Assembly: GCA_964368535.1 (NCBI GenBank)
Contig: CAYJBC010000002.1
Span: forward strand, 3,294 to 56,755
From: an uncultured Muribaculaceae bacterium
Lineage (GTDB): Bacteria; Bacillota_I; Bacilli_A; RF39; UBA660
Length of the DNA: 53,462 nucleotides
Direction of reading: 5' to 3'
Shown here one piece after another: positions 4,374 through 26,563 of this stretch. The position numbers and the translations under genes are program-made. The stretch's first letter is position 1. Every line of letters starts with the position of its first letter. A model generated the notes under the pieces. The model saw only the letters and a list, made by a program, of their open reading frames with translations, was not told the origin of the DNA and did no database searches.

Positions 4374-4408
4374 TGAAAGAAAAAACTAATTAGTAATCTA
4401 ATTAGTTT
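4374..4408 (-). terminator. Intrinsic terminator closing the fibre operon
   Basis: Perfect 10-bp inverted repeat AAACTAATTA-N6-TAATTAGTTT overlapping the TAG stop at 4398-4400. On the minus RNA it is followed by TTTTCTTTC. Confidence 0.6.
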
Positions 4409-6053: not shown

Positions 6054-6198
6054 TGCCAACCTCCAAATCTTTAGTTATTTTTTCTTTATTGTCTTTTAAA
6101 AATTCTAAAAATTCTTCTATTTTATAATTTAAATCTATCAACTCTTTATATGAAAGAATTGATAAATCAAAATTAGTTTTATTTTCCTTTTTATCCAT
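6046..6198 (-). CDS. Small 50-aa ORF (MDKKENKTNFDLSILSYKELIDLNYKIEEFLEFLKDNKEKITKDLEVGNE)
   Basis: Below the ORF-track size cut-off; translated by hand. GAGGGAG SD 7 nt upstream. Its last codons overlap the next gene start (AATGAATAA, 8-nt overlap), which suggests translational coupling. Confidence 0.45.
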   Translation of the reverse strand: MDKKENKTNFDLSILSYKELIDLNYKIEEFLEFLKDNKEKITKDLEVGNE

Positions 6199-6218: not shown

Positions 6219-7262
6219 TTATAAACCATATCCCGCTAAATCTTTAAAGAAATTAAGCGTTACATTTACTAAGGCTCCTGTTGAATATACTTCTAAACTA
6301 TCAACATCTTGTCCTTCTATCCATATATATACTCTTATTTTAGTTATACCATGTGGTAACTCAAATAATCTATCATCTAAATCTGTTATTGTTTCTTGCT
6401 CTGCAAAGTATTCTGTATTCAGTGGTATATTACTATGCCCTGAGTCATGTTCTAGATACTTACCTTCATTTATGACTGCATATGTAGGAACATATTCTCC
6501 ATTTGTAATATCTATACCATATCTTTTTAATTTTCCTATTGAATAATCACTATGCTCCGTACTATTTGGTTCATATATAGTTGAAAAACATTCATTATTA
6601 CATTCTAGATTTTGCACAGTCTGTGCATCTGCATTTTTATCTGGGGTGAAACCTTGCCACGCTATACCGATTCTTATCGAATTAAACAATCCAGGAATTT
6701 CTTCTTCATAACCTTCATTTAAGTATACTCCAGTACCATCATAAAGATATAAATTATCACTGTATGGTGTGTTACTTATATTTTTTAAAAACACGTCAAA
6801 TGCTACGTATCTACTTCCTAAACTATTTTCTTCATCATAATATATTGTATCTAGGTATCTTCTTCCATTATCTTCTAAATAATCTAATCTAGAATTTTCA
6901 AAAAAAGTAAAATATTTATTATTCGCATCAATGATTCCATTTGATGAAACTGGAACTAAACCATTGTTAGACCATTTATTATTATGATCAGGGTATTCAT
7001 CAGTTATTCCGTATAATATGTTTTCTTCATTTACTATTATTTCACTACCATAATTTACACCATCAAGCGAAGCATATAAACCTGTTTCTCTATTAACTGT
7101 TAATTTAACAAAATCTACAGTAGCATCTATTGAAGATGAAAACCAGGCGTATGTAACTACTATTAAAATTAATCCGACACAAAAAGCAAAAATTAATAAT
7201 ACATTAAAATTTATTTTTCTCCTTTTTATGTCTAATTGTTTTTTGTTTTTTTTACTAGTCAT
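6219..7262 (-). CDS. TasA/camelysin-like fibre protein paralogue with SipW-cognate-type signal peptide
   Basis: 347 aa. N-terminus is K/R-rich plus TM, ending VVTYAWFSSS. Shares LDG..Y, GLVPVSSNG, YVAFDVFLKN, SIRIGIA and IYEPN blocks with 7364..8668 and 8694..10019. C-terminus ITKIRVYIWIEGQDVDS...GALVNVTLNFFKD. SD AGAGGGA. Confidence 0.65.
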   Translation of the reverse strand: MTSKKNKKQLDIKRRKINFNVLLIFAFCVGLILIVVTYAWFSSSIDATVDFVKLTVNRETGLYASLDGVNYGSEIIVNEENILYGITDEYPDHNNKWSNNGLVPVSSNGIIDANNKYFTFFENSRLDYLEDNGRRYLDTIYYDEENSLGSRYVAFDVFLKNISNTPYSDNLYLYDGTGVYLNEGYEEEIPGLFNSIRIGIAWQGFTPDKNADAQTVQNLECNNECFSTIYEPNSTEHSDYSIGKLKRYGIDITNGEYVPTYAVINEGKYLEHDSGHSNIPLNTEYFAEQETITDLDDRLFELPHGITKIRVYIWIEGQDVDSLEVYSTGALVNVTLNFFKDLAGYGL

Positions 7263-7287
7263 ATTTTTCCCTCTTAACTAAGATGAA

Positions 7288-7309
7288 GGAGTAACCATTA
7301 GGTTACCCC
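7288..7309 (-). promoter_or_regulatory. GC-rich intercistronic stem-loop between two fibre paralogues
   Basis: Minus RNA GGGGUAACC-uaau-GGUUACUCC (9 bp including one G-U). It is by far the most GC-rich hairpin in the locus. The following tract UUCAUCUU is a poor U-run, so this is more likely an attenuator or mRNA stability/processing element than a full terminator. Confidence 0.45.
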
Positions 7310-7363
7310 TTTTATCCTAATTTAATTTATTTACAAATTATTATTACATCAATAATTATTATA

Positions 7364-8668
7364 TTATGGTGTAAAGTCAGCTTCTGTAAATTTTTGTTTA
7401 GTAAATCCAAAGTTAACAAGTATTTGTGCTCCAGCAGCAGAAAGGTCCATATTATCTAGGTCATTTCCTTCTAGGTATACATATACTCTTACTTTAGTAA
7501 TACTATTTGGCGCTAAAGTCATAAATGCTGGACGATCATTACCTGCGATTAATTTTTCAGCATCAGTAAATGTATCAACATTTTCAACTAATGTTCCAGC
7601 AGCAACTGGATCAAAAGTATTGTGTCCATCATATATATCAAATCTAGCAGCAGAATTTATTGCTCCACTTACAGCCCATGTATCTAATTCTAGATTATCT
7701 GCAAAAGCAGTAAATCCTGGTTCAACATTTCCGTCTGTGAAATCTCCATCTGCTCCTGTATCTGGTGTAGATACATTACATTGAGTATCAGTGTAAACTG
7801 AATTTCCATCTACATCATCAGCAGATCTATTATCACAGTATGTATTAAACCAATTAATTGCGTTATCTTCATGATTTCTTTCATTTGGTTCATAGATTAC
7901 AGCATCTGTACAGATACCAGTAACTCCACCAGCAACAGTACCAGTAGCACCATTACAAGTGATTCCACCGATAAGTGTTCCATCTTCACTTGATCCATCT
8001 ACACGTCCAATTGGTGCGAATGCCACACGAACTGAATTTTCAATTCCTTGATCAGCAGCTCCAGTATAACCTAGGTCATTACCTTCAGCGTCAGTTGTTC
8101 CAGCAGCAGCTACGCTTACTCCTGAATCAGTTAATAAATAAATTTCTTCTTCATCAGCTAAATTATAATCTTCAATATATTGAGCTCCTGTGAAGTTTTT
8201 GATAAATAAGTCAAATGCAACGTATCCATCTACTTCAGTAGTAGTGTTAGCTAGTTGATCAGCAACTAATCTAAAACCACCACCAGTGTGTGTATAACTT
8301 CCTCTTTCGAAAAGTTCAAGTTTAGAAGTGGCAGGATTAACTGTACCTACAGTTGAAATAGGCATTAAACCATTTCCACCCCAACTATTTGTGTTCCCAT
8401 CATAAACTTGACTAGGTGTTGCAGCTGCATCATCATATGCAGTCCAAGTTCCTTCAGTTAAAGTAACTGTTTCACCCCAGCTAAGTCCATTTAATGATAT
8501 TAATAAGTTATCTGTTGAAGCAATTTCTACTTGGAACTCACTTACAGTAACTTCTTGTAAACCAATAAACCATGCATAAGTTGATACTATTAGTATAACT
8601 GCACTAAATCCAGCAAATATCAAGATATTTTGGATTTTTTTATTAGCTTTTTTATTATTTTTACTCAT
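7364..8668 (-). CDS. TasA/camelysin-like fibre protein paralogue (candidate major subunit)
   Basis: 434 aa. N-terminus ...ILIVSTYAWFIGLQEVTVSEFQVEIASTDNLLISLNG. Blocks VDGYVAFDLFIKNFTGAQYIE, GIENSVRVAFAP, GITC...TGIC, IYEPN, TFTDAEKL. C-terminus RPAFMTLAPNSITKVRVYVYLEGNDLDN...GAQILVNFGFTKQ. SD AGAGGAGA. Confidence 0.7.
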   Translation of the reverse strand: MSKNNKKANKKIQNILIFAGFSAVILIVSTYAWFIGLQEVTVSEFQVEIASTDNLLISLNGLSWGETVTLTEGTWTAYDDAAATPSQVYDGNTNSWGGNGLMPISTVGTVNPATSKLELFERGSYTHTGGGFRLVADQLANTTTEVDGYVAFDLFIKNFTGAQYIEDYNLADEEEIYLLTDSGVSVAAAGTTDAEGNDLGYTGAADQGIENSVRVAFAPIGRVDGSSEDGTLIGGITCNGATGTVAGGVTGICTDAVIYEPNERNHEDNAINWFNTYCDNRSADDVDGNSVYTDTQCNVSTPDTGADGDFTDGNVEPGFTAFADNLELDTWAVSGAINSAARFDIYDGHNTFDPVAAGTLVENVDTFTDAEKLIAGNDRPAFMTLAPNSITKVRVYVYLEGNDLDNMDLSAAGAQILVNFGFTKQKFTEADFTP

Positions 8669-8693
8669 ATTATTTCTCCTCTATATCTTTCTA

Positions 8694-10019
8694 TTATGCT
8701 TCATATATTTGTTTACTGAATCCAAAGTCAACAGTTATTTGTTTTCCTTCGATAGCCCAGTCATAGTTATCTATGTCTTGACCTTCTAAGTAAATATATA
8801 CTCTAATTTTTGTAATACTATTTGGTGCTAAAGTCATGATTGATGGTCTTTCATCAGCATTCAATAATTTTTCAGTGTCTGTAAATGTATCAAAAGCTTC
8901 TAAAGTTGCAGCTCCAGCATTTGGATAAGCAGTTGTTCCATCAGGCATTGTATCTGGCACTTCTGGTACAGCTAAACCATTAAATCCACCATCATAAATG
9001 TTAACATCCATATCAGATGAAATATCAGTTGCTACTGCATATGTAGTATAAGCAGTTCCATTAGCTATTGCTATACAACCTTTAGTTGTAAATCCAGCAC
9101 CAGTTGGAGCAGTTGCTGTTCCTCTATAACCACAGTTATTATTATAATAATTAATTGCACCATCTACGTGAGCTTTATCATTTGGTTCCCAAATACTAGC
9201 AGTTCTACAAATACCAGTAACTACACCAGCTTCACTTGTACAAGTAATACCTGTGATAGTTGCAGCATCAGTTTCAGTACCTTCAACACGTCCTACTTGA
9301 GCAAATGCTACACGAACAGAGTTTTCGATTCCTGAAGCTTGTCTAATTGTATCTTCTGCAGCATCAGTAGTTCCACCGTTATCTCCAGTTAGAGTTACTG
9401 CTACATTTGATTCATCAATTAAATAAATTGCTTCTTCATCAGCAGGATTTAATGCTTCTATATATTGAGCCCCAGTATAATTTTTAACGAATAAGTCAAA
9501 AGCAATATATCCATCTACTTCAGCCACTGGTTGATGTCCAGCAGTAGCATCATCACCATCTAAAGTGTTTTCTACTTGACTAGCCATTAGTCTAGTACCA
9601 TATGGTGGTGTAGGACTTAAACTTGCTTTTTCATACATTACTAATCTTGAAGAAGTAGTATCCATTTCTCCAACAGATGACATAGGTATTAATCCAACAG
9701 GATCGTTTACACCATCACCATCAGTATCAGTATCTAATCTTCCAGTCCATGAGTTTGTATTTCCAACATAAGCACTTGTTCCAGTAACATCTTCAATTGT
9801 ATCTGGATCAATATCTATTGTATCTGACCAATTAGCACCATCAAGTGATAATTCTAAACTATCAGTAGCAGCGATTTTTACTGTAAAATCTTCTACTCTA
9901 ACTTCGTCAAGACCAATAAACCATGCATAAGTTGAAACTATTAAGATAATCGCAGTTAATGTTGTTACTGCAGCTAAATTTCTTATGTTTCTTTTTTGTT
10001 TTGCGTTTCTTTTTTGCAT
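8694..10019 (-). CDS. TasA/camelysin-like fibre protein paralogue (candidate major subunit)
   Basis: 441 aa, roughly half-identical by eye to 7364..8668. STYAWFIGLDEVRVEDFTVKIAATDSLELSLDG, VDGYIAFDLFVKNYTGAQYIE, GIENSVRVAFAQ, GITC...TGIC, WEPN. C-terminus RPSIMTLAPNSITKIRVYIYLEGQDIDN...GKQITVDFGFSKQ. Confidence 0.7.
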   Translation of the reverse strand: MQKRNAKQKRNIRNLAAVTTLTAIILIVSTYAWFIGLDEVRVEDFTVKIAATDSLELSLDGANWSDTIDIDPDTIEDVTGTSAYVGNTNSWTGRLDTDTDGDGVNDPVGLIPMSSVGEMDTTSSRLVMYEKASLSPTPPYGTRLMASQVENTLDGDDATAGHQPVAEVDGYIAFDLFVKNYTGAQYIEALNPADEEAIYLIDESNVAVTLTGDNGGTTDAAEDTIRQASGIENSVRVAFAQVGRVEGTETDAATITGITCTSEAGVVTGICRTASIWEPNDKAHVDGAINYYNNNCGYRGTATAPTGAGFTTKGCIAIANGTAYTTYAVATDISSDMDVNIYDGGFNGLAVPEVPDTMPDGTTAYPNAGAATLEAFDTFTDTEKLLNADERPSIMTLAPNSITKIRVYIYLEGQDIDNYDWAIEGKQITVDFGFSKQIYEA

Positions 10020-10036
10020 AACTTCTCTCTTTCCTC

Positions 10037-10735
10037 CTATTTTTCGACTATTTCTGAATTAAATTTCATTTGTAGTTTAATTTCTCCACCAATAATATTA
10101 TTAGTGGTTTCTGGATCTTTACCTTCCAGCCATATTACAATAGTATATTTTGTAATATCACCTGGAGCAAAATCCAAAGTATCATCAACCACAACTAGCT
10201 TATCAGATGCAAAAGGCACAGTTCCTTCTTCAGGCTCACCAGAAGCTGATTCTTTTGCGTAAGTGACTACTTCACCATTCTTGTAAACTTTAATCCTTAC
10301 AGCTTCGTCGACATTTCTTATAACATCATCTATAAGTATTTCAGAATGGTAATCAGTTACAGCTTCTCCTGTATTTTCGATGTAAAATGTATAAGAAATA
10401 TAATTATCTCCATTATTAGATCCGCCCCCATGCGAATCTAAGTCAGCAGGTAACCAACTTTCTGCTACATTATCGAAAGTATCAATCGATGGTGCAACTA
10501 ACTCCGATCTGTACGTTTTATAATTAGGATCATCATAAATGATAAGACCCCTCTCATAATACAAATTCCTATCGAGTGTTATCGTGAAATTTCCACTATT
10601 ATAAACAAACCCAATTACAAGATACGAAAATATAACAGCTAAGATTAGAACTACTATTGCTAATTTAGCAATTTTAATTAACTTCTTATCCCTTCTTATT
10701 TTCTTAGCATCAATTGTAAATTTATTTTCTTCCAT
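10037..10735 (-). CDS. Membrane-anchored TasA-like protein lacking the AWF signal motif (possible anchor or nucleator)
   Basis: The track ORF begins at 10807. ATG at 10735 (MEENKFTIDAKKIRRDKK...) follows AAGGAG. One TM (IAKLAIVVLILAVIFSYLVIGFVY). C-terminus GDITKYTIVIWLEGKDPETTNNIIGGEIKLQMKFNSE matches the family strand motif. Confidence 0.55.
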   Translation of the reverse strand: MEENKFTIDAKKIRRDKKLIKIAKLAIVVLILAVIFSYLVIGFVYNSGNFTITLDRNLYYERGLIIYDDPNYKTYRSELVAPSIDTFDNVAESWLPADLDSHGGGSNNGDNYISYTFYIENTGEAVTDYHSEILIDDVIRNVDEAVRIKVYKNGEVVTYAKESASGEPEEGTVPFASDKLVVVDDTLDFAPGDITKYTIVIWLEGKDPETTNNIIGGEIKLQMKFNSEIVEK

Positions 10736-10811
10736 ATTTATCAATCTCCTTGATATCAACAAGAAATATTTACTCTTGAGTGTATTGATATCTTGTCTAT
10801 AATACAAATTA

Positions 10812-10840
10812 ATTATATAAAATAAAACATTCTAAGTCAA
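10812..10840 (-). promoter_or_regulatory. Sigma-A-type promoter for the 10735->4398 fibre operon
   Basis: On the minus strand TTGACT-17 nt-TATAAT (-35 at 10840-10835, -10 at 10817-10812), about 70 nt upstream of the start codon. Confidence 0.5.
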
Positions 10841-10963
10841 TATAATTTGTATTATTTTGTCGAATATTTTTGTAAAGTTTACTATATACTTTACTAATGA
10901 CGTTTTAACTTTAATTTATGTGTAAAATTTTACGTTATTTTATGATTATTTACATAAAATGTA

Positions 10964-10992
10964 TTGCGATATATACATATTATATATATAAT
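10964..10992 (+). promoter_or_regulatory. Sigma-A-type promoter for 11015..11638
   Basis: TTGCGA-17 nt-TATAAT, then AAGGAAG SD 7 nt before the ATG. Confidence 0.45.
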
Positions 10993-11014
10993 GATGTTGT
11001 AAAGGAAGATTGTT

Positions 11015-11638
11015 ATGAAAAAAAGAGTAAGAATATTATTTTTGTTTGTATCTGTTGTAATTACCCTTAGTATGATTAGCAGCACATATTCTCGGTATGT
11101 AGCTGATACTACTGGAACTGTTGATGTTTCTCTTTCCAAATGGCAAATACTTGTAAATGAAACAGATATTGTTCAAAATGCATCTTCAACCATAGAGTTT
11201 ACTCCTCATATTGAACAAAATAATAATGTGACTAATAATACATTAGCTCCTACATCTACTGGATACTTCGATATAGAAGTAGATCCTACAAATGTTGATT
11301 TATCTTTTAGATACAGTATTGAATTAAGTTCTGCAAGTACTGATGTTCCTGATTTTATAATTAATAAATACGAAATACTTGAAGGTGATACTTTAGTTAG
11401 CAATCCTTTGAATATAATAAATATAAGTAATGGTATTATAGAAAACACACTGCTTTATAATAGTAATGTTGAAAATTATATACATGAAAAGTTTACTATA
11501 AGAGTTTACTTTGAATGGTTTGATGGTGATACTAATATAATGACTGATGAGCAAGATACCGAAGTTGGTAATAGAGCTGCAATCGAAGATTTAAAAGTTG
11601 CAATACAAGCTAATGTAACATTTGAACAAGTTATTTAA
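11015..11638 (+). CDS. Small TasA/camelysin-like secreted protein, the only plus-strand gene in the locus
   Basis: 207 aa. N-terminus MKKRVRILFLFVSVVITLSMISSTYSRYVADTTGT, a variant of the T-Y-A-x-F-x-D class signal. FTIRVYFEWFDGDTN and KVAIQANVTFEQV parallel the RVY..EG.D and terminal-strand motifs of the paralogues. Confidence 0.55.
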   Translation: MKKRVRILFLFVSVVITLSMISSTYSRYVADTTGTVDVSLSKWQILVNETDIVQNASSTIEFTPHIEQNNNVTNNTLAPTSTGYFDIEVDPTNVDLSFRYSIELSSASTDVPDFIINKYEILEGDTLVSNPLNIINISNGIIENTLLYNSNVENYIHEKFTIRVYFEWFDGDTNIMTDEQDTEVGNRAAIEDLKVAIQANVTFEQVI

Positions 11639-11652
11639 TAACTTGTTTTTTT
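11625..11652 (+). terminator. Intrinsic terminator between convergent genes
   Basis: AACAAGTTAT-tta-ATAACTTGTT (10-bp stem spanning the TAA stop) followed by TTTTTTAT. A second small hairpin TTATGC-A8-GCATAA follows at 11651-11670. Confidence 0.65.
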
Positions 11653-11671
11653 ATGCAAAAAAAAGCATAAG

Positions 11672-12898
11672 CTATATTGTGCTTAATGCTGTTTTATCTG
11701 CGATTATTACAGGTACTACTTTACATTGATTAGTTTTATTATTTGAATATAGTTGACTGCGAGATGTATTTATCGATCCTATTGCAAAACCATTATCTAC
11801 ATCATACTCACTATTAGTCCAAACACAAGTTGCTGTATATAATGAAGAAAATTTATCATTAGAATATGTAAAGTTACCTCCATATGTTATAGTATCTGTT
11901 ATTTTTTTATCACTTCTACCATCATAGTTAACTGAACCTATTATAATATCTGACATATTTTCTTTTTCTATATAACTGTTTACAATATCTTTAGATATTA
12001 TATTAAGTACATCTGTTGCTTCTAAAGGTCTTGTATCAACTGTCCATGAAGCAACTCTTGAATTATATGTTGTTAGATACGCATCATAACTGCTTAATGA
12101 AGCTGCTGATTTTACATCAGGTAATAATGTAACTGTATTTTCAGATAATAAATTATCTATATCAATTACATTTGTTTTTAAACAAGTTGAGCTAATTGTT
12201 GTACAAGATTTATTATTAACTACATCAAATAATACTATGTCTCCTAATCTATAATCTCTATCCGAAGCTTCTGGCGAAGATTCAACTGTTTGTTCAGCTA
12301 TTACATCAATTACTATTTCAATCGGATTTTTTACTTCATAAGATGAATCCAATGCTAACTTATCATTTTCACTTACTGCAAAATTATATGCCTTTAATCC
12401 CCATTGACTATCTAATGCATCATTTCCAGTATCAAGAGGCCATGATATCGATACTTCAAAAGTACTATATCCAGTTCTGTACGGTAATAGTGTGTCACTT
12501 AAACTTACATCTATATGAAATGGATATTCATGCGCTAGTGCATCCTCTATTTGTTCGCTAGTTCTTACTGGATCGGTTAATAGCAAATCTTCTTCGAAAA
12601 CTCTAGCAGATTCAACATATGTATAAAGTTTTGCATCTGCATCTCCAAAATTATTGATTTCAATTACTTCAGTAACAGTTTCCATTCCTGGATATATTTC
12701 TGCAGATGTAATTACTATACTATTTGTAACTGATGTACTATCATCAGTGAATTCTATGTTCCACGCTCTTACATCTACAACAGCTGATACTGTTGTGCTA
12801 TTCATTCCTGTAAACCAGGCATAAGTTACTGAGGCAAACAATATAACTATAAGTATTAGAACGAATATTTTTAATTTTGTAATATTTCTTTTAATCAT
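11672..12898 (-). CDS. TasA-like N-terminal domain protein with SipW-cognate-type signal and a distinct C-terminal domain
   Basis: 408 aa. N-terminus ...LILIVILFASVTYAWFTGMNSTT. FEVSISWPLDTGND...IEIVIDVIAEQ strand pattern. C-terminal half ends CVWTNSEY...KVVPVIIADK, echoing the YTMS...VVRPVISIK end of 878..2515. SD AAAGGAG. Confidence 0.6.
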   Translation of the reverse strand: MIKRNITKLKIFVLILIVILFASVTYAWFTGMNSTTVSAVVDVRAWNIEFTDDSTSVTNSIVITSAEIYPGMETVTEVIEINNFGDADAKLYTYVESARVFEEDLLLTDPVRTSEQIEDALAHEYPFHIDVSLSDTLLPYRTGYSTFEVSISWPLDTGNDALDSQWGLKAYNFAVSENDKLALDSSYEVKNPIEIVIDVIAEQTVESSPEASDRDYRLGDIVLFDVVNNKSCTTISSTCLKTNVIDIDNLLSENTVTLLPDVKSAASLSSYDAYLTTYNSRVASWTVDTRPLEATDVLNIISKDIVNSYIEKENMSDIIIGSVNYDGRSDKKITDTITYGGNFTYSNDKFSSLYTATCVWTNSEYDVDNGFAIGSINTSRSQLYSNNKTNQCKVVPVIIADKTALSTI

Positions 12899-12919: not shown

Positions 12920-13492
12920 TTATTCCCTTGGTATATTTCTTCTTTTTGCTTCCTTTTCAAGCATTCTACTTATTATTTCATACCCTATAATAAATAGTAC
13001 TGGAACTATTATTAATAAGTACATACCTAAAGGTGTACTTATAATATTGTATATAAATGATAAAAATGCTGCGTTATGAACTACTACTCCATATATTTGT
13101 TCTTCACTAACTATTGGATCTTCTACCTCATTAGCTATACCTTTAGTTCTGAATAAAAGATTCCCATCTTCGTCAGTTTCTATATCGATAACTGCATGTG
13201 TAACAACTTTATCTTTGAATTCCCCTTCAGTTCCCAGATAACTTATATCGTCACCTATTTCTATATCATTTGGGTCTTTTTCTATACTTATTAAAATGTC
13301 TCCTACCTCATACTTAGGAATCATACTACCAGTTAATACACTAAACATTCTTATATTTAAAAATGCAAATTCGTTATTACTAAATCTCTGAAGACCAACC
13401 ATAAGCACAAAACATATTATAAATATACCTATTAATATTTTGGTCAAAAGTTTTATTATAGAGAAAACCTTTTTAACTTTCTTATTTTTCAT
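12920..13492 (-). CDS. sipW: Signal peptidase I, SipW (ER/archaeal, Ser-His) type
   Basis: 190 aa. N-terminal TM, VLTGSMIPKYEVGDILI (catalytic Ser box), VVTHAVIDI (His box), FRTKGIANEVEDP (TKGD-N box), C-terminal TM plus basic tail. Lies immediately upstream of the TYAWF-signal proteins. Confidence 0.8.
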   Translation of the reverse strand: MKNKKVKKVFSIIKLLTKILIGIFIICFVLMVGLQRFSNNEFAFLNIRMFSVLTGSMIPKYEVGDILISIEKDPNDIEIGDDISYLGTEGEFKDKVVTHAVIDIETDEDGNLLFRTKGIANEVEDPIVSEEQIYGVVVHNAAFLSFIYNIISTPLGMYLLIIVPVLFIIGYEIISRMLEKEAKRRNIPRE

Positions 13493-13500
13493 CTTATCAA

Positions 13501-14640
13501 TTACAAGTATTCTTGTACCCTTTCTAAGTATTCATCCATAGCATTTTTAAATTTATTTTTAATATCTTGATTTGCTACTTTACTTTTATCATCCATATTA
13601 TGATTGTCATTACCTAAATTATTTGCGATAAGTTCAAGTATTTCATCATCTGTTATATTAAATCCACATTTCTTTAATAAATCTAATAATCTCTTTATCT
13701 CATCATTTATTAATGATAATGCATATTTATTTAATTTTTCTTTTTGTTCTTTTTTTGTTTTACAAACACTTTCTAATACATAAAAATCTACTAAAAATGA
13801 ATGATCTAATAATCCCATCAATAAATCTGAACCATCAGAATCTAAACCTTTTCTTTTATCACCTTGATTATCAAGATAATTATATAAAAAGTTCCATAAC
13901 TCTACTGCCATTTTGAAATTAGGATTTTTAAGAATTATATTTGTCTTCTTAATTGGTGGATTAACTAGTTTAACTCTGGCTTTTTCCAACTGTTTAAATA
14001 ATTCACTTCTTTGCCAAGAAGACAAATAATCTTTAACCCTATTAATTCTTTTTCTTATACTGCTTATTTCATCTAATAAATCTTTATTTAAATCTGGCTT
14101 TGATACATCTGTTGCTTTAAGAAGAACTTGCATTTTAATTTCTTCATTCGCTACTCTTGTAGTACCCATATATTCTAGTTTACGAGTACGATCTATTAGA
14201 AGTTCATCTAGTTCTTTTTCCTTTTTTGCTATAAATCTAGCCAGAAAATAAATAACTGTGTAAAGGAATCTATTTTCATAAATATTATAAGTTTCTTCAC
14301 TTTTAATATTTAGTATTTTAGATGGTCTAACATCACCTTTGGGAGTAACATCATCAATATAATAGTTATGAACTGCTAAGTCTTTAATACTTTCAACAGT
14401 TATTTTTTTAGCCTTTTCAATTAATTCAACTTCCGCTTCATTTATTAGTATTAATTTAGGATTTCTTACAACATTGTCAAGGTAAGGGCAAGACTCTTCA
14501 ACGATATCTATCCAATCAAAGTTGATTGAGTCTCCATCCATTTTTGCTTTGTATTGCATATCTGATGTTATTTTTTCAAAGAACACTTTATTCTTTTTCT
14601 TAATCTCAACATCAATATCCTTATCGATTAAATCAGCCAT
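13501..14640 (-). CDS. DUF2357/McrC-N-like partner protein with no recognisable nuclease motif
   Basis: 379 aa with SD AGGGAGG. TYNIYENRFLYTVIYFLARFI and KNPNFKMAVELWNFLYNYL resemble the ENRF-type motifs I associate with DUF2357/McrC-like partners of McrB ATPases. I see no PD-(D/E)xK-like D...(D/E)xK block and no TM segment. Starts 23 nt after the McrB-like gene. Confidence 0.4.
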   Translation of the reverse strand: MADLIDKDIDVEIKKKNKVFFEKITSDMQYKAKMDGDSINFDWIDIVEESCPYLDNVVRNPKLILINEAEVELIEKAKKITVESIKDLAVHNYYIDDVTPKGDVRPSKILNIKSEETYNIYENRFLYTVIYFLARFIAKKEKELDELLIDRTRKLEYMGTTRVANEEIKMQVLLKATDVSKPDLNKDLLDEISSIRKRINRVKDYLSSWQRSELFKQLEKARVKLVNPPIKKTNIILKNPNFKMAVELWNFLYNYLDNQGDKRKGLDSDGSDLLMGLLDHSFLVDFYVLESVCKTKKEQKEKLNKYALSLINDEIKRLLDLLKKCGFNITDDEILELIANNLGNDNHNMDDKSKVANQDIKNKFKNAMDEYLERVQEYL

Positions 14641-14663: not shown

Positions 14664-16181
14664 TTAAATTGATTTTTTTATGTATTCTATAAATTCAATA
14701 CATTCTTTCATAACACCTTTACCACATTCCTTATTTAAGAATGAAATAAAAGGATCTAACTCATCACGTATAAACGCTATATTTAATTGTTCAAATTTTC
14801 TTAATATTTTTTTAGCTATAAAGTAATCTATGGCTTCAATCTCTGATCCGCCACATGCTACATATACTGGCGCAAATGTTTTAAGCTGTTTCATAATACG
14901 ATTACCAAATGCTATTCTAAAATGATTAATAACATAATCATCTATTTTAGCCAACTTATTTAAACCATCTTCAGTTACTGGATATTTTACAATAGCCTCT
15001 TCAAATAAATTTTCTAAATATGTTGCATTCATTGGCAATGCATCTTGTTTTCTTGATTCAAATGGTTTAATTTTTTTGTTAATATCTATCGGTATCGCTC
15101 TGTCATAAACCTTATCTGTTACCATATAAGTTGAATCATCGTTATTAATTGTACCTATATACCAAAGATTTCCAGGCAATCTCAATTTACCATTATCAAG
15201 TTTTGCTGCGTCATGTGGCCAACCACTTGTAACAAGCTCAATAACCCATTCATCTCTTGCTGGAATTTCTAGAATAGATAACATTTCTGCAAAATAATAT
15301 TCTACTCTAGCAATGTTCATTTCATCTAGTATAATTGTATGAACATTATCATCAAAACTCGCTGCATAAATTTCTCCAAGTGCTTCAGTTTCAGTGAATT
15401 TTTTAGTAAATTCATTGAAATATCCTAGGAATTCAGTTTTATCTTTCCAAGATGGCTGAACTGATGCTACTACTGAATCATTAGCAACAAATTTACCCCA
15501 CGCATATGCTAAAGAAGTTTTACCTGTTCCTGATATACCTTGAAGAATTATTAACCTACTTGATGCAAGGCCTGCGATAAATGTTCTTAACAGGGAATGA
15601 TCATAAAATAATTTTAGACTACTTGCAGAAAATGCTCTAAAATCATCTGTCATTTGCTCTAATGTAAAATTATTATTGTAATTTTCAGGTGTATAATCTA
15701 CAAACTGCTCATCAATAAGTTCAAGTTTTGGAAATCTATGGGCATTTTCTTTTGTTTCTTCATCAACTTCATCTTCTGGATTAATACCATCTTCGCCCTC
15801 TTCATCAGGATTTAAGCCTAATTGAGAAACTTTCATAGCCATTAATTCAGCATTTTCTTTCATTAATTTTCTAACTTGATTATTTAATTTATCTACTTCT
15901 TCTAGTAGTGAATCATTACTTATTTTATGAGTTTTATTTCTCACAAATTTTCTTACATATAAGAAAATAAGGAAAGCTATTAAACCTATAATAAGTACAA
16001 TAATACCTACTGCTATTGCTGTAAATAGCCATTCAGGTCCATCAAATTCTTTGCTGTAATTATCTATAATTTTTACATAATTACCGAAATTAAATATTCC
16101 TACTATACCTTCCCATATTGATTGTAATCCTGAAACAAATATATCAAAGAATTCGTAAAAAAATCTTAAAAATGTATCCAT
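14664..16181 (-). CDS. Membrane-anchored McrB-family AAA+ (AAA_5) NTPase
   Basis: 505 aa. TM helix (WLFTAIAVGIIVLIIGLIAFLIFLYV), coiled-coil, acidic linker. Then Walker A LQGISGTGKTSLA, SVQPSWKDKTEFLGYFN, Walker B plus family signature IILDEMNIARVEYYFAEMLSILE, and IGTINNDDSTYMVTDKVYDRA (the McrB MNxxDR-like block). Start overlaps the stop of the upstream gene by 1 nt (TAATG). Confidence 0.7.
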   Translation of the reverse strand: MDTFLRFFYEFFDIFVSGLQSIWEGIVGIFNFGNYVKIIDNYSKEFDGPEWLFTAIAVGIIVLIIGLIAFLIFLYVRKFVRNKTHKISNDSLLEEVDKLNNQVRKLMKENAELMAMKVSQLGLNPDEEGEDGINPEDEVDEETKENAHRFPKLELIDEQFVDYTPENYNNNFTLEQMTDDFRAFSASSLKLFYDHSLLRTFIAGLASSRLIILQGISGTGKTSLAYAWGKFVANDSVVASVQPSWKDKTEFLGYFNEFTKKFTETEALGEIYAASFDDNVHTIILDEMNIARVEYYFAEMLSILEIPARDEWVIELVTSGWPHDAAKLDNGKLRLPGNLWYIGTINNDDSTYMVTDKVYDRAIPIDINKKIKPFESRKQDALPMNATYLENLFEEAIVKYPVTEDGLNKLAKIDDYVINHFRIAFGNRIMKQLKTFAPVYVACGGSEIEAIDYFIAKKILRKFEQLNIAFIRDELDPFISFLNKECGKGVMKECIEFIEYIKKSI

Positions 16182-18649
16182 TATTTTTCCTCCCTATTAA
16201 TTATTAATTTTGATTCTATATCATCTTTAATAATTTTATTTTTGAAATTATCGAAAACAACTTTCTCTAATTCTATTATCTTGTTTGTTCCTTTATCTAT
16301 AAATATATACTCTGCTAATGCTATACCAGTTTTATTTTTACTAGCAAATTTAGTTTCATCATTAATGTACATTGCTATTCTAAATCCATTTTTTCTTAAA
16401 TTTTTAATACTAGCAGCTTTTTTCATAAATAAATCGTAATTTATAAGATAAACAATATTTTTCTTAGCGTATTCTTCATTATTTTGTTTAAATAATCTTT
16501 CAAACTTAGCATCCTTTAAACATAAGCTATTTGGTATCATTACCATATATTCATTTACAAATTCTCCAGTAAGCATGTCATGAGATAACCTTGCTTGAAG
16601 TAGTGTAAGAAGCACATTAAGTTTGTCTTCTGCAACTATTCCTTCCATGTAAGCTTTAGTTACCACTTTATCACTGTATACTTGTGAAAAGTTTATATTA
16701 TGTTTTAAATCCAATAGGAATTTAGCTTTTTCAGTTTTAAAACTATGGTATATAAGTTCAAACATTTCTGTGTTAAGTCTATCTAAGAAATATTTTGAAG
16801 CTGATCTATAGTGTTTTTGAGAATGTATGATTTCTTTAACTGTATACTCTATATTATCATTTTCTATATCATAATCATGAATAAATTTAATAATTTCTTT
16901 TGTATAAAGTATTTTTTTGTTTCTCATATTAATATCTAGGTCCACTAAATATTCTAGTTTTGATATAAGTAATATTAAACTCGAGTATTTTATTAATTTT
17001 TCTTCATAAGATTTATCATTTCCTGAGTATACACTTGCAAGTTTGGCACTATCTTCTTCTAAGGCATATGACACTCTTGTTATTAGTTTTTTTATTCTTG
17101 CTGCATAACTTTTAGAAAAACCATTTTTTTCACTAATTACTGTTGTACTATTAAGAACTGCATATCTAGGTTTTTTTGCTGCTGCTTTTCTTGTTTCCAA
17201 TGCTGCCACTTTTTCACTAAATATATTGTAATATTTCGACTCCAAATAAGATTTAATTAAAGCTTTTTTTATTGATGCTTCATTAGTTAAAATTTTACTT
17301 TCACCAAATATTAAATCTATAGTTTTATTTATTTCTTCTTCTTTAATGGCCATAGTTCTAGCTATTATATTTTTACTTCTTTTATTTTCTGGTTTATTAA
17401 AAATCATTTCTAATGTGAATTTGGCCTCTTCTTCATCATTTTTCTTTTCTTTTTCTTTAATTGGTTCTTCCTCAACTGTTTTCTCAACTATTTCGGGTTG
17501 TTCAACAATTTCTTCTTCAACTTCAGGCATTTCATAATCTTCATCATCTGTACTTATTATGAAAGAATCATTTGATACTGGAATATCAACTTTTTCCTCT
17601 ACCACTTCATCAACTGTTTCTTCGTTTATATTCATTTCAAGAGGTAGATTTTCTTCAGTTTCTTCTTCAATAGTATTTATTACTTCTTCTTTTTGACTTT
17701 CAGCGAATCTTTCTTTAATTGTTTGTCCTTTTTCTGCACTTCTTGCTGGCTCATTACCTAATGGTTCATCTCCAGTAATAATCGGTCTATCATTAAAATC
17801 ATTTGGCTTTTCAATTTCTTCTTCAAAAGATTTTTCACTTACTAAGTCTTTGTCTTCATCAACTTCAATCATTCTAAAAAACATTGTTTTACTTAATTCG
17901 TCTTCTTTATCATAATCATCAATAATTTTTTCTTCTTCTATTTCATTTTCTTCATCAACATCAAATTTAGTGTGATCTTCTAACTTTTCTTCATAATCTG
18001 TAAATTTAGGTTGTGAAGCTACATTTTCAAAGGATTTTGTTGTGTTATCTTTAAAAAATTCTTCTTCTTCTTTTTGGTTACTAAATTTATTTTTAATTTG
18101 ATTAAACAAATATTTTATTTTTTTTATCACCTTGTTAAAACCTCCTTTTTTTAATTCTTTTGTATTAAATATATATACCGTTATTATTAATGCTATTAAA
18201 ACATATGGGTTAAATAATGTGTTTCTGAACACTCCAAATAAAGGTATTATCGTTACTACTTCACCAACTATTTGCTCTGTTCCAATTGGGTCATCTTCTT
18301 TGTTATTAGCGTCCCCTTTTGTAATATAAGTTTCACTATATTTTTCTATAACACGATGGGTAATAAAATTTCCATCTTGTTTGAATGTAACAATATCATC
18401 TAAATTAAAACTTTTCTGTTCTTTAACTATAATCCAATCACCAGCACTAATTTCTGGTTCCATGCTTCCTGTTTGTACTTCAAACATTGTGTAACCGAAA
18501 AAACTGGAATAATCATTTCCCAGAATTTTAACTTGTACAACATTATATAAAGATATCAAAAGTATTATTCCAAAAATAAATATTAAGACATCTAATAAAA
18601 TATTAGTAGCTTTTTTCATGTATTTATTAGCACCAATATTTGACAACAT
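16181..18649 (-). CDS. SipW-type signal peptidase domain fused to a ~650-aa acidic/helical C-terminal extension
   Basis: 822 aa. Residues ~15-165 are TM, then FEVQTGSMEPEISAGDWIIV, FITHRVIEK, YITKGDANNKEDDP, then a second TM (canonical SipW boxes). A long E/D/K-rich low-complexity stretch follows, then a helical domain. SD GGAAGG upstream. Confidence 0.75.
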   Translation of the reverse strand: MLSNIGANKYMKKATNILLDVLIFIFGIILLISLYNVVQVKILGNDYSSFFGYTMFEVQTGSMEPEISAGDWIIVKEQKSFNLDDIVTFKQDGNFITHRVIEKYSETYITKGDANNKEDDPIGTEQIVGEVVTIIPLFGVFRNTLFNPYVLIALIITVYIFNTKELKKGGFNKVIKKIKYLFNQIKNKFSNQKEEEEFFKDNTTKSFENVASQPKFTDYEEKLEDHTKFDVDEENEIEEEKIIDDYDKEDELSKTMFFRMIEVDEDKDLVSEKSFEEEIEKPNDFNDRPIITGDEPLGNEPARSAEKGQTIKERFAESQKEEVINTIEEETEENLPLEMNINEETVDEVVEEKVDIPVSNDSFIISTDDEDYEMPEVEEEIVEQPEIVEKTVEEEPIKEKEKKNDEEEAKFTLEMIFNKPENKRSKNIIARTMAIKEEEINKTIDLIFGESKILTNEASIKKALIKSYLESKYYNIFSEKVAALETRKAAAKKPRYAVLNSTTVISEKNGFSKSYAARIKKLITRVSYALEEDSAKLASVYSGNDKSYEEKLIKYSSLILLISKLEYLVDLDINMRNKKILYTKEIIKFIHDYDIENDNIEYTVKEIIHSQKHYRSASKYFLDRLNTEMFELIYHSFKTEKAKFLLDLKHNINFSQVYSDKVVTKAYMEGIVAEDKLNVLLTLLQARLSHDMLTGEFVNEYMVMIPNSLCLKDAKFERLFKQNNEEYAKKNIVYLINYDLFMKKAASIKNLRKNGFRIAMYINDETKFASKNKTGIALAEYIFIDKGTNKIIELEKVVFDNFKNKIIKDDIESKLIINREEK

Positions 18650-18724: not shown

Positions 18725-18753
18725 AAAAAAAAGTAGACAAATTAATATCTACT
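18725..18753 (-). terminator. Weak intrinsic terminator after the degenerate SipW-like gene
   Basis: AGTAGA-N10-TCTACT hairpin spanning the stop codon, followed on the minus RNA by a T8 run. Confidence 0.45.
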
Positions 18754-19338
18754 ACTTCTTTCTACTTTTTTCGGTTTATTTTTCACTTTTTTTTGTTTTT
18801 TTTCTTCATAAACTCTTGGACTATCATCGTTTCCAAATTTTATTTCAACTATTAAAGCATATATTTGATAAATAAATATTAAGAAACAAGGAACTACTAT
18901 TAAGAAGAAGAACACCCATGTTGATTGTAATAAACCAACATATGTTCCTAAACCACTATATACTTCTGTTGCGCTTCCTGCGATAAATTTAGAAGAATAA
19001 GTCGGTCCATTTTCCAAAGTAACCGCATCTTCATCAATATGAACTTCCCCTACAAAGCCTAACTCTATATTTACTTTATCATTATCATTAATTTGAAATA
19101 AAAATATTTCATCGCCAACGTTAATATCTTTTAATGGTTCTTTTAAAGTAAGAACTAAGTCTCCTTTTTCATATTTTGGAGACGATATTTCATCACCTAT
19201 TATAAGAAGCGATGTGTTATCAAATTGCGTGATTCCAAATTCATCATCTCTATTTAGCAGTAATATTGACATACCTATTGCTATTATAAAAAATAATAAT
19301 ATTAATATTCCCACTATAATTTTTTTTACTATTCTCAT
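18742..19338 (-). CDS. SipW-like paralogue with degenerate catalytic boxes (possible pseudo-peptidase)
   Basis: 198 aa with the same topology as SipW (N-terminal TM, C-terminal TM, K-rich tail). SPKYEKGDLVLTLKEP aligns with IPKYEVGDILISIEKD of 12920..13492, but the GSM Ser box reads GDEISS and no TKG(D/I)AN box is present (LENGPTYSS). SD AGGTGAG. Confidence 0.55.
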   Translation of the reverse strand: MRIVKKIIVGILILLFFIIAIGMSILLLNRDDEFGITQFDNTSLLIIGDEISSPKYEKGDLVLTLKEPLKDINVGDEIFLFQINDNDKVNIELGFVGEVHIDEDAVTLENGPTYSSKFIAGSATEVYSGLGTYVGLLQSTWVFFFLIVVPCFLIFIYQIYALIVEIKFGNDDSPRVYEEKKQKKVKNKPKKVERSSRY

Positions 19339-25396: not shown

Positions 25397-25422
25397 AAAA
25401 AAGGAATATTAAATTTCCTTTT
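25397..25422 (-). terminator. Intrinsic terminator after the DD-carboxypeptidase gene
   Basis: AAAAGGAA-loop-TTCCTTTT hairpin overlapping the stop, with a T-run on the minus RNA. Confidence 0.5.
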
Positions 25423-26563
25423 ATTTACCAGATATAATAGATTTTAAATTTTTTATTAAATAATCTATTATGTTAGCTTTTTTTATCTCCTGTTTAACAA
25501 TTATATCTACTTCATCTACTATATTGTTATCATTATCAATTATTTGAGCAGTACCGACCACGCTATCTTTATTTACTGGTGCAACTATATCATTAATCAT
25601 TATTCTAAATGTGTATGTTTTATTAGTCTCTGTTACCTTTTGTAATTCGGTTGCATTTTCTTTAAGATACACTTCTACTTCATCTATTTTTCCGTTTATA
25701 ACCTTTATGGTACCTAAATTTTCACTTTTATCTTTAATTAAAAATAATTTATAGGAATTAAAGCCATAGTCTAACATATTTATTGTATCACTACTTCTTG
25801 CTTCACTTGTTGGGGCTCCCATTGAAACGCTTATTAATCTTAAATCATTTTTCTGAGCAGTTGCAGTTAAACAATAACCAGCACTGTCTGTATACCCTGT
25901 TTTTAATCCATCAACACCACTGTAATAACGGATAAGTTTGTTGGTATTCACCATCCATGTACTTGATCCATCTGGCTTACTTAAATATTCTTCATATATA
26001 CTAGTGAAATCTAATATATCTTCATATTTCAGCAATTCTTTAGCTAAAAGTGCCATATCATATGCAGATGAATAATGGTTTTCTTCATCTAATCCATGTG
26101 GATTCATAAAGTTAGTCGCAACACATTCTAATTCTTTACATAAATCATTCATCATATCCACAAACGCTCCTGTGGTTCCTGCTACTTTTTCACTTAATGC
26201 AACTACTGCATCATTACCACTGGCGATTGAAACTCCTTTAATAAGTTCAGATACTTTATAAACTTCTCCCTCTTCTAAAAACACTTGACTTCCACCCATT
26301 GAAGCTGCTTCTTTACTAATGGTTACTTCATCTTCGTAACTTATTTTTCCTTCATCAACAGCTTCCATTATTAATACTAAACTAGCAATTTTGGTCATTG
26401 ATGCTGGTGATAATTTTTCTTTAGAATTTTTTTCAAATAATATCTCTCCAGTGGAAAACTCCATTAGTATCGCACTTTTTGAATTAGGAGCTATATCTTC
26501 TGCTGCTTTTACTGATGAAATTAATGTAAAAAAACTCATCAACACTATTAATATTTTTTTCAT
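25421..26563 (-). CDS. D-alanyl-D-alanine carboxypeptidase (PBP5/DacA-DacF type)
   Basis: 380 aa. Signal peptide ...ISSVKA, SxxK (PASMTKI), SxN (SGND), KTG (LKTGYT). Confidence 0.85.
   Translation of the reverse strand: MKKILIVLMSFFTLISSVKAAEDIAPNSKSAILMEFSTGEILFEKNSKEKLSPASMTKIASLVLIMEAVDEGKISYEDEVTISKEAASMGGSQVFLEEGEVYKVSELIKGVSIASGNDAVVALSEKVAGTTGAFVDMMNDLCKELECVATNFMNPHGLDEENHYSSAYDMALLAKELLKYEDILDFTSIYEEYLSKPDGSSTWMVNTNKLIRYYSGVDGLKTGYTDSAGYCLTATAQKNDLRLISVSMGAPTSEARSSDTINMLDYGFNSYKLFLIKDKSENLGTIKVINGKIDEVEVYLKENATELQKVTETNKTYTFRIMINDIVAPVNKDSVVGTAQIIDNDNNIVDEVDIIVKQEIKKANIIDYLIKNLKSIISGK

Follow-up and report, generated by a model that had tools for sequence, protein, structure and literature searches.

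A SipW-type signal peptidase with a large, predicted cytoplasmic tail in a conserved McrB-like GTPase gene cluster of uncultured gut Bacilli

We have analysed a stretch of 53,462 nucleotides, hereafter the window, from an assembly titled as that of an uncultured Muribaculaceae bacterium and placed by GTDB among the Bacilli (Bacillota_I; Bacilli_A; RF39; UBA660; GCA_964368535.1, contig CAYJBC010000002.1, positions 3,294 to 56,755 of the forward strand), and we describe a gene in it that joins a signal peptidase to a long C-terminal extension. The gene (16181..18649, minus strand) is an uninterrupted open reading frame (ORF) with a ribosome-binding site, GGAAGG, 5' of its ATG; its product of 822 amino acids (aa), which we call long SipW, consists of a signal peptidase, an acidic linker, a helical bundle and an alpha/beta domain with a fold like that of EAL domains. 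A sequence-only reading of this DNA had recognised in the N-terminal part a complete SipW-type enzyme with two transmembrane (TM) helices, and our searches bear this out. Residues 20-161 match TIGR02228 (signal peptidase I, archaeal/ER type) with 77.8 bits against a cutoff of 51.85, and PF00717 is matched with 30.7 bits against a cutoff of 23.3. The serine box (GSMEP), the histidine box (ITHRV) and the TKGDAN box are all found, and S62, H98 and D113 are identical across all covering sequences of a 101-sequence family alignment. Their counterparts in Bacillus subtilis SipW, Ser47, His87 and Asp106, are reported to be essential (PMC8767453), and long SipW is, to judge from these residues, apparently a catalytically competent peptidase. 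The match to the B. subtilis SipW model NF046067 (67.5 bits) falls under the equivalog cutoff of 190, so long SipW is a SipW-type enzyme and not a SipW orthologue. The catalytic domain, of the S26B/S24 fold and predicted to be extracytoplasmic, spans residues ~48-135 (18245..18508, minus strand), and its structural matches in Foldseek (LexA, UmuD, Streptococcus pyogenes SipA and Escherichia coli SPase I) are those expected of the S24/S26 fold.

The orientation of the protein in the membrane was deduced from hydropathy, the distribution of lysine and arginine (K/R) and the helices of AlphaFold2 (AF2) models. The first TM helix, at residues ~14-36 (18542..18610, minus strand), gives a Kyte-Doolittle maximum of 2.82, lies in a hydropathy peak at 11-44 and coincides with a modelled helix at 7-42; the second, at residues ~143-163 (18161..18223, minus strand), coincides with a modelled helix at 148-162 and is followed by a lysine-rich juxtamembrane stretch. 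Three K/R precede the first helix in the N-terminal tail and nine lie within residues 163-192 after the second, and each outer flank has one. The two hydrophobic helices and this charge distribution indicate an N-in/C-in topology and hence a cytoplasmic tail, as the sequence-only reading had proposed; the C-terminus of B. subtilis SipW likewise lies on the cytoplasmic side (PMC8767453).

The long ORF might be thought an artefact of assembly or of a frameshift that joined SipW to a downstream gene, and both of its parts do occur as separate genes in sister lineages. However, the same uninterrupted ORF, with the same architecture and a length of 609-827 aa, runs through 80 independently assembled loci. 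The metagenome-assembled genomes (MAGs) from which we retrieved these loci are those of uncultured Bacilli, Mollicutes or Tenericutes, and the gut sources include humans, chickens, goats and the rumen. With the tail as query, a protein search returned at least 54 clusters, mostly of 610-700 aa and many with an N-terminal S24/S26 match, among which the only name was 'signal peptidase I [Bacilli bacterium]'. The linker between the two parts holds a conserved in-frame motif, and in the split lineages a gene for a protein of ~191 aa stands between SipW and the tail module, so that the fusion could not have arisen from a simple frameshift. On these four counts we reject the artefact and give it next to no credence. 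The long ORF is one gene, as the sequence-only reading had it, and the fusion is genuine and the norm in the whole clade: a scan found relatives in at least 111 GTDB species-representative genomes. The long-tailed architecture is thus not rare, and the type of system around it has been named (CoCoPALM), though not analysed (PMC11090510). We note that the title 'uncultured Muribaculaceae bacterium', a name from the Bacteroidota, is carried by many GTDB representatives with this low-GC, Bacilli-type cluster (L005-L010, L018, L025, L030 and others), and that one record (L020) is titled 'Ignavibacteriales'; such titles look like mislabels from bulk submission and are unfit for taxonomy.

The tail consists, in order, of the lysine-rich juxtamembrane helix, the acidic linker, the helical bundle and the alpha/beta domain. 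The linker (residues 164-407; 17429..18160, minus strand) varies in length, has low column occupancy in alignments and is predicted to be disordered, since residues 191-394 have a predicted local distance difference test score (pLDDT) below 50 in the AF2 model. Across the family it measures 92-294 aa (median 139 aa) with a median of 28% aspartate and glutamate, and it is a longer linker, together with an insertion of ~35 aa at residues 481-520, that brings the window copy of 822 aa near the upper length of the family. Within the linker lies one short linear motif, DELSKTMFFRMIEVD (residues 250-264; 17858..17902, minus strand), found by alignments and regular-expression search. It is the sole conserved island of the linker, with the consensus D/E-L-x-K-T-x-x-F-R-x-I-x-V-D. 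Conservation of T255 and R259 reaches at least 95% in the 101-sequence alignment, and K254 and D264 never vary in an alignment of 28 sequences. When the motif was sought in six frames of all loci, its matches were confined to the linkers of long SipW, in 36 loci and the window; a six-frame scan of the split-gene loci found the motif on no other protein. TM-anchored relatives of the tail that carry no peptidase (P0132, P0142) also have it.

The C-terminal ~400 aa, which had been read as a helical domain throughout, instead comprise a helical bundle of ~215 aa and an alpha/beta domain of ~190 aa. We modelled residues 408-822 by AF2 with the family alignment (pLDDT 83.6, predicted TM-score 0.84); a model of full-length long SipW had a lower overall pLDDT of 67, with 70-86 in the peptidase domain. 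The bundle (residues ~408-625; 16775..17428, minus strand), with helices at model positions 2-216, forms the first half of the conserved tail module and gave no informative fold match in a Foldseek search of the PDB. By sequence, neither residues 164-420 nor residues 421-822 had a meaningful match in Pfam at E <= 10, and a profile search of PDB sequences with the tail alignment gave 0 matches. The alpha/beta domain (residues ~626-812; 16214..16774, minus strand) begins in the model with a beta-hairpin and continues with beta-alpha repeats, and its 7 strands run in an order that fits the EAL fold. Within it lies the segment with the highest conservation in long SipW, HNINFSQVYSDKVVTKAYMEGIVAEDK (residues 650-676; 16622..16702, minus strand; family pattern HNINFS..Y......Y.EGIVAEDK), where the mean column identity is 0.71-0.80, as against 0.62-0.72 in the peptidase core, and where H650, N651, E674, D675 and K676 are invariant. 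To judge from the position of this segment, the tail is under strong selection.

EAL domains account for 16 of the 22 top Foldseek matches of the alpha/beta domain in the PDB, with probability ~1 and weak E-values; they are those of PA0575, MucR, RocR, FimX (4ag0, 3hv9, 4f48), LapD (3pjt), BifA, MorA and YahA. Because these are its best and almost its sole structural matches, and because FimX and LapD are themselves non-catalytic receptors of cyclic di-GMP (c-di-GMP), we considered whether the domain might be a degenerate cyclic-dinucleotide receptor of the LapD or FimX kind, through which a ligand in the cytoplasm would switch the activity of the outward-facing peptidase, or its choice of partner, in an inside-out form of control over fibre processing. 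EAL proteins of the FimX type regulate a hexameric pilus-assembly ATPase (PMC5595344, PMC8389850), and a ligand pocket would be in keeping with how strongly residues 650-676 are conserved. The sequence, however, carries no EAL signal: PF00563 has no match in the tail in Pfam even at E <= 10, the PDB profile search was empty, as noted, and an hhalign comparison of the 101-sequence alpha/beta profile with six E. coli EAL domains (PdeH, PdeK, BluF, PdeG, PdeL and YdiV/RflP) gave global junk and a local chance match of 9 residues. The relationship to EAL domains is therefore structural only. With residues mapped by secondary-structure (strand) order, and not by a residue-level structural alignment, the family has L648 in place of the catalytic glutamate, the invariant H650 in place of the arginine of EALxR, P706 in place of the metal-binding asparagine and isoleucine or valine at 784 in place of the catalytic lysine; the ExxE and DD positions are variable, and an acidic residue at 809 alone is retained. 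Most of the residues that coordinate the metals and the phosphates of c-di-GMP would on this mapping be gone, and the domain is also shorter than an EAL domain, with its 7 strands in ~190 aa. A receptor of this kind seems to us improbable, and the suggestion of a regulatory ligand made in the sequence-only reading is weakened. From the model and the mapped residues we conclude that the alpha/beta domain is probably a divergent, truncated and catalytically dead EAL-like barrel with a conserved surface of its own. It cannot be filed under the EAL family and, on its predicted active-site positions, is not a c-di-GMP phosphodiesterase. We propose that it serves as a non-enzymatic scaffold for protein interaction, or possibly as a binder of another ligand.

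The gene that follows long SipW (14664..16181, minus strand) encodes an McrB-like GTPase of 505 aa that is predicted to be anchored in the membrane. The stop codon of long SipW and the start codon of this gene overlap by one base (TAATG), and a Shine-Dalgarno sequence, GGGAGG, lies within the 3' end of long SipW; translational coupling of the two, which had been read from the sequence before, is plausible on this arrangement. The 505-aa protein has one strong TM helix at ~52-76 and then a conserved helical or coiled-coil stretch of ~30 aa (L92-K117), for which a crude heptad count was uninformative, followed by an AAA+ domain that matches McrB (NF008457, E 2e-4; PDB 6hz4, E 8e-4). In 76 orthologues N346, N347 and D348 never change and the residue at 349 does, which makes the conserved motif N-x-D. 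No other protein of the cluster comes near it in conservation: ~190 of its residues show an identity of at least 93% among the 76 species-level orthologues. Beside it is encoded an McrC-like protein of 379 aa (13501..14640, minus strand) that matches DUF2357 (PF09823, 30.5 bits, cutoff 23.3). No acidic residue is invariant at positions 250-379 among 71 orthologues, so that the protein is without the PD-(D/E)xK nuclease motif.

The order of the genes around this pair is nearly invariant. When the cluster proteins of the window were searched by tblastn, the loci showed the sequence 198-aa protein, long SipW, 505-aa protein, 379-aa protein, short SipW, a 408-aa secreted protein and, on the opposite strand, a 207-aa protein; the order long SipW, McrB-like, DUF2357, SipW and 408-aa protein holds in nearly all of 84 fusion loci, with gaps only at contig ends. 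Other members of the cluster are a 256-aa TM protein and several secreted paralogues that measure 350-440 aa; many loci also encode a protein of ~1070 aa.

These surroundings bear on whether the cassette could be an McrBC derivative that serves against phages or in other conflicts, in which the membrane peptidase and its tail would sense the attack or act as the effector; damage to the membrane or to secretion might, for instance, lead to abortive infection. Such a system would be in keeping with the matches of the 505-aa protein to McrB and, with E 3.6e-37, to the candidate defence model PDC-M26A of PADLOC, and the closest described relatives, the CoCoNuTs, are predicted to be defence systems (PMC11090510). 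Yet the 505-aa gene sits in a cluster of surface proteins. PADLOC has no match for long SipW, for the DUF2357 protein or for the 198-aa protein, and the McrC-like partner is without its nuclease motif. Whereas defence islands are patchy, every genome examined has here a vertically conserved cluster of 15-20 kb that encodes several signal peptidases and 5-7 secreted proteins, and in the window it is flanked by housekeeping genes (argS, a P-type ATPase, SufS/NifU). We regard a defence role as very improbable; the N-x-D motif and the nuclease-less partner fit a role outside defence, as far as such motifs can indicate one.

We find that the tail module is not confined to long SipW. When the tail profile was run as a hidden Markov model against 1.84 billion representative proteins, it found 382 relatives in three architectures, and for 102 of these the match has E <= 1e-30. 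The first is that of the window, with SipW, linker and module in ~600-870 aa; in the second, nearly the whole module stands alone as a protein of 320-350 aa; and the third, of ~590 aa and without a peptidase, has a simple TM anchor followed by a coiled coil, an acidic linker and the module, its linker motif taking the form D-L-S-K-T-x-x-L-S-K-I-x-L-D. Free-standing modules form at least 456 clusters, a large family that has no annotation. In all three independent contigs examined, the gene for the free module lies directly upstream of those for a TM-anchored McrB-like protein and a DUF2357 protein, which makes the module the third constant partner of the McrB-like and McrC-like pair. In two of these three loci a short SipW (173-177 aa, called active) is found two genes upstream of the module; the ~191-aa gene stands between them and in one of the two (L089) encodes a predicted secreted protein. 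Further SipW paralogues and secreted proteins follow downstream. On this distribution the tail module is, as far as can be read from sequences, an independent and mobile evolutionary unit, and the pattern of fusion and fission, of the kind known as 'Rosetta stone', points to a functional and probably physical link between peptidase, module and GTPase.

Two further proteins of the same locus (L089) also carry C-terminal tails: a fourth SipW paralogue of 232 aa (17450..18148 of that locus) ends in a poly-acidic tail of its own of ~45 aa, and a pseudo-peptidase of 267 aa (7458..8261) ends in a long, basic tail rich in threonine and lysine. Cytoplasmic tails on signal peptidases thus seem to recur in these clusters.

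The same distribution can be read in another way, in which the tail is a scaffold for localisation or oligomerisation that acts independently of the GTPase, by clustering the peptidase at a pole or septum or by auto-inhibition, and in which the adjacency of the genes reflects co-regulation only. A helical bundle on a long flexible linker is typical of scaffolds, and the TM-anchored variant of the module does exist without a peptidase; the N-terminus of the McrB-like protein, FtsB-like according to Bell et al. (PMC11090510), hints moreover at the site of division. Against this, the free module directly precedes the McrB-like gene in each of the three independent loci, the long SipW and McrB-like genes overlap in the fusion lineage, and adjacency as tight as this across deep divergence (30% identity) usually marks the subunits of one complex. 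We therefore hold a scaffold of that kind to be unlikely. The sequence-only reading had suggested a coupling of the peptidase to the AAA+ protein: the position of the module gene directly upstream of the McrB-like gene in sister lineages speaks for such a coupling, and its physical side is what the gene arrangement leads us to infer.

The remaining genes of the cluster can be set around this core. The ordinary SipW of 190 aa that had been noted at 12920..13492 (minus strand) is confirmed by a match to TIGR02228 of 78.4 bits, and it is 32% identical to the N-terminal domain of long SipW. It reads TKGIANEVED where long SipW and B. subtilis SipW have a 'GDxN' box with the catalytic aspartate, and its orthologue in L089 likewise lacks this aspartate (TQGIANNLED); with the aspartate missing in the short enzyme, the long and short peptidases may differ in mechanism or activity. 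A second paralogue of 198 aa (18742..19338, minus strand) has the two-TM shape of SipW and is without the catalytic serine and histidine, that is, a pseudo-peptidase (BLASTP against the 190-aa SipW, E 2e-11, 24% identity). Its gene lies 92 nucleotides upstream of long SipW on the same strand, a pairing kept in most loci. Long SipW, which had been taken for the first gene of the operon, is thus the first of the conserved core and not of the whole cluster. A promoter scan placed promoter-like sites 5' of both genes; as the region has no more of them than chance would give, the promoter evidence is weak.

The predicted substrates lie at 6219..12898, where the translations, in a synteny that is conserved, give proteins of 408, 441, 434 and 347 aa on the minus strand and one of 207 aa on the plus strand, together with the 256-aa TM protein. 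The first four have lysine-rich, hydrophobic N-termini that end in '...(S/V)TYAWF', and the 207-aa protein ends this region with '...STYSRY'. The proteins with the '...TYAWF' signal are, by prediction from their sequences, the candidate substrates of long SipW. This signal resembles what we take to be the SipW-cognate signal of proteins of the TasA/camelysin type, and no sequence search confirmed a relationship to TasA. The same four paralogues share a C-terminal motif, 'ITK(I/V)RVY(I/V)(W/Y)(I/L)EGQD'. Neither they nor the 207-aa and 256-aa proteins match a sequence in Pfam, NCBIfam or the PDB.

A small ORF of 50 aa (6046..6198, minus strand) overlaps the start of a gene for a cytoplasmic, helical protein of 553 aa (4398..6059, minus strand), and the same pair, of 45-47 aa and 528-539 aa, is present in L001, L003, L089 and L090; it is apparently another conserved, unannotated component of the cluster. 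Farther away, at 25421..26563 (minus strand), a secreted protein has the SxxK (SMTK), SGN and KTG motifs typical of a D-Ala-D-Ala carboxypeptidase of the PBP5 type, which suggests that the host makes peptidoglycan, although related MAGs are labelled Mollicutes or Tenericutes.

The best explanation of these observations, in our view, is that the cytoplasmic C-terminus of long SipW has gained, by gene fusion, the dedicated adaptor of an McrBC-derived, membrane-anchored GTPase system of the CoCoPALM type. Fibre subunits with signal peptides of the SipW type would be exported by Sec and would stay anchored in the membrane by their signal peptides, where the outward-facing peptidase domain (S62/H98/D113) could cut them. 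The tail would reach into the cytoplasm on a flexible acidic tether of ~100-300 aa that bears one conserved docking motif, and the helical-plus-EAL-like module would bind a hexamer of the TM/coiled-coil McrB-like GTPase and its nuclease-less McrC-like partner. Cleavage and release of the subunits may then take place at the GTPase machine, gated or energised by the GTPase. That long SipW is an active peptidase for some of the secreted subunits of the cluster and that its tail docks it to the McrB-like/McrC-like complex, which gates or energises the release of subunits, we hold to be about an even chance. We can also imagine, with more doubt, that the whole cluster is an undescribed machine for the assembly of surface fibres, in which a GTPase motor derived from McrBC takes the place of PilB-type ATPase or chaperone-usher logic and the peptidase is hard-wired to it by an EAL-derived, ligand-blind adaptor; in that event the fusion in the window would be a 'Rosetta stone' for the physical architecture of such a machine.

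Several points weigh against this explanation. The AF2 models are of single chains, and the contact between tail and GTPase is one that we infer. To our knowledge, no mechanical role has been assigned to a GTPase of the McrB type in secretion or fibre assembly. The full-length model predicts no docking of the conserved linker motif in cis. The structural likeness of the alpha/beta domain to EAL domains comes with E-values of 2e-3 to 0.3 and root-mean-square deviations of 6-12 A, and the TM-score by target stays under 0.5: isolated EAL-domain chains reach 0.36-0.46, and entries with several domains score lower. It is equally conceivable that the free module works on the GTPase by itself and that the fusion is a convenience of one lineage. 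Finally, the predicted substrates have no sequence match in Pfam, NCBIfam or the PDB to TasA or to a solved fibre protein, and a phmmer search of the PDB with the 441-aa protein gave a chance match; given that they show no similarity to TasA, the term 'fibre assembly' rests on the resemblance of the signal peptides and on published context (PMC11090510).

The enzyme class of long SipW is known already, and its type of operon has a name. What appear to be undescribed are the architecture with a long tail, the tight tie to an McrB-like GTPase and the cryptic EAL-like adaptor. Fibres that depend on SipW, such as those of the TasA type, are generally held to form outside the cell with no source of energy. 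If the link between SipW and the GTPase is real, at least one lineage would couple the release of subunits to the hydrolysis of a nucleotide, and the motor of a restriction enzyme (McrBC) would have been re-used for the biogenesis of the cell surface, as suggested, and not analysed, by Bell et al. (PMC11090510). The pattern of fusion and fission names three proteins that would be expected in one complex, namely the tail module, the McrB-like GTPase and the McrC-like protein, and the 15-residue motif of the linker offers a concrete target for mutagenesis. If the model is right, the alpha/beta domain would also add a case of an EAL-fold domain without any sequence hallmark of EAL. The carriers are abundant, uncultured Bacilli with small genomes from human and animal guts, and we know of essentially nothing that has been established about their surface structures.

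Among described systems the nearest is CoCoPALM, the name that Bell et al. (eLife 2024) gave to a large clade in which an McrB GTPase of the NxD type is fused to an FtsB-like TM/coiled-coil domain (PMC11090510). The operon in the window appears to match it in the features that were tested. These features are an McrB-like GTPase with an NxD motif, the DUF2357 McrC homologue without a nuclease, and the association with genes of the signal peptidase family, here two SipW-type genes and one inactive paralogue that flank the McrB/McrC pair in the window and in the related loci. The TM helix and helical stretch at the N-terminus of the GTPase are similar in outline and may correspond to the FtsB-like domain. 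Bell et al. devote two sentences to CoCoPALM and defer its analysis to a later paper (PMC11090510); their supplementary text has no detail on CoCoPALM or on signal peptidases, and in the literature searched we found no later paper that names it. The long-tailed peptidase, the helical-plus-EAL-like module as a third core component and the pattern of fusion and fission are absent from that description (PMC11090510).

With B. subtilis SipW the enzyme shares the TIGR02228 family, the Ser-His-Asp residues, the two TM helices, the cytoplasmic C-terminus and a gene beside those of fibre or matrix subunits with a dedicated type of signal peptide. The cytoplasmic tail of the B. subtilis enzyme has a second, signalling role that is independent of the peptidase (PMC8767453); it is a tail of 20 aa, whereas that of long SipW has ~650 aa and folded domains, and the tapA-sipW-tasA operon is without the McrB-like and McrC-like genes that the window operon has. 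In S. pyogenes, SipA/LepA (4n31), a homologue with the signal-peptidase fold that is essential for the polymerisation of pili, is matched structurally by the N-terminal domain of long SipW. SipA is inactive, and its closest analogue here is the 198-aa pseudo-peptidase; it works with pili that are polymerised by sortase, whereas long SipW keeps its catalytic residues and its cluster has no sortase.

Two systems with EAL domains offer parallels for the tail. In the LapD/LapG system a cytoplasmic, degenerate EAL domain controls an extracytoplasmic protease that processes an adhesin. There, as would be the case here, a cytoplasmic domain of the EAL fold is linked across the membrane to the proteolysis of a surface protein, and LapD (3pjt) is among the Foldseek matches. 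In that system, however, the protease is a protein of its own, a cysteine protease of the periplasm, which is sequestered rather than fused; LapD has a conserved EAL pocket in which it binds c-di-GMP, and its HAMP and GGDEF domains are not present in long SipW. FimX is a non-catalytic EAL protein that binds and regulates PilB, the hexameric ATPase of pilus assembly (PMC5595344, PMC8389850). It differs from long SipW in that it is soluble, carries no fused peptidase and has a PilB/GspE-type ATPase as its partner in place of an McrB-like protein, and in that its degenerate GGDEF-EAL domains keep the residues that bind c-di-GMP, and do bind it, whereas in long SipW the signature residues are replaced. 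Nevertheless, FimX is among the best Foldseek matches of the alpha/beta domain, and the two systems would have in common a domain of the EAL fold, without phosphodiesterase activity, that is tied to a hexameric NTPase serving a filament on the cell surface.

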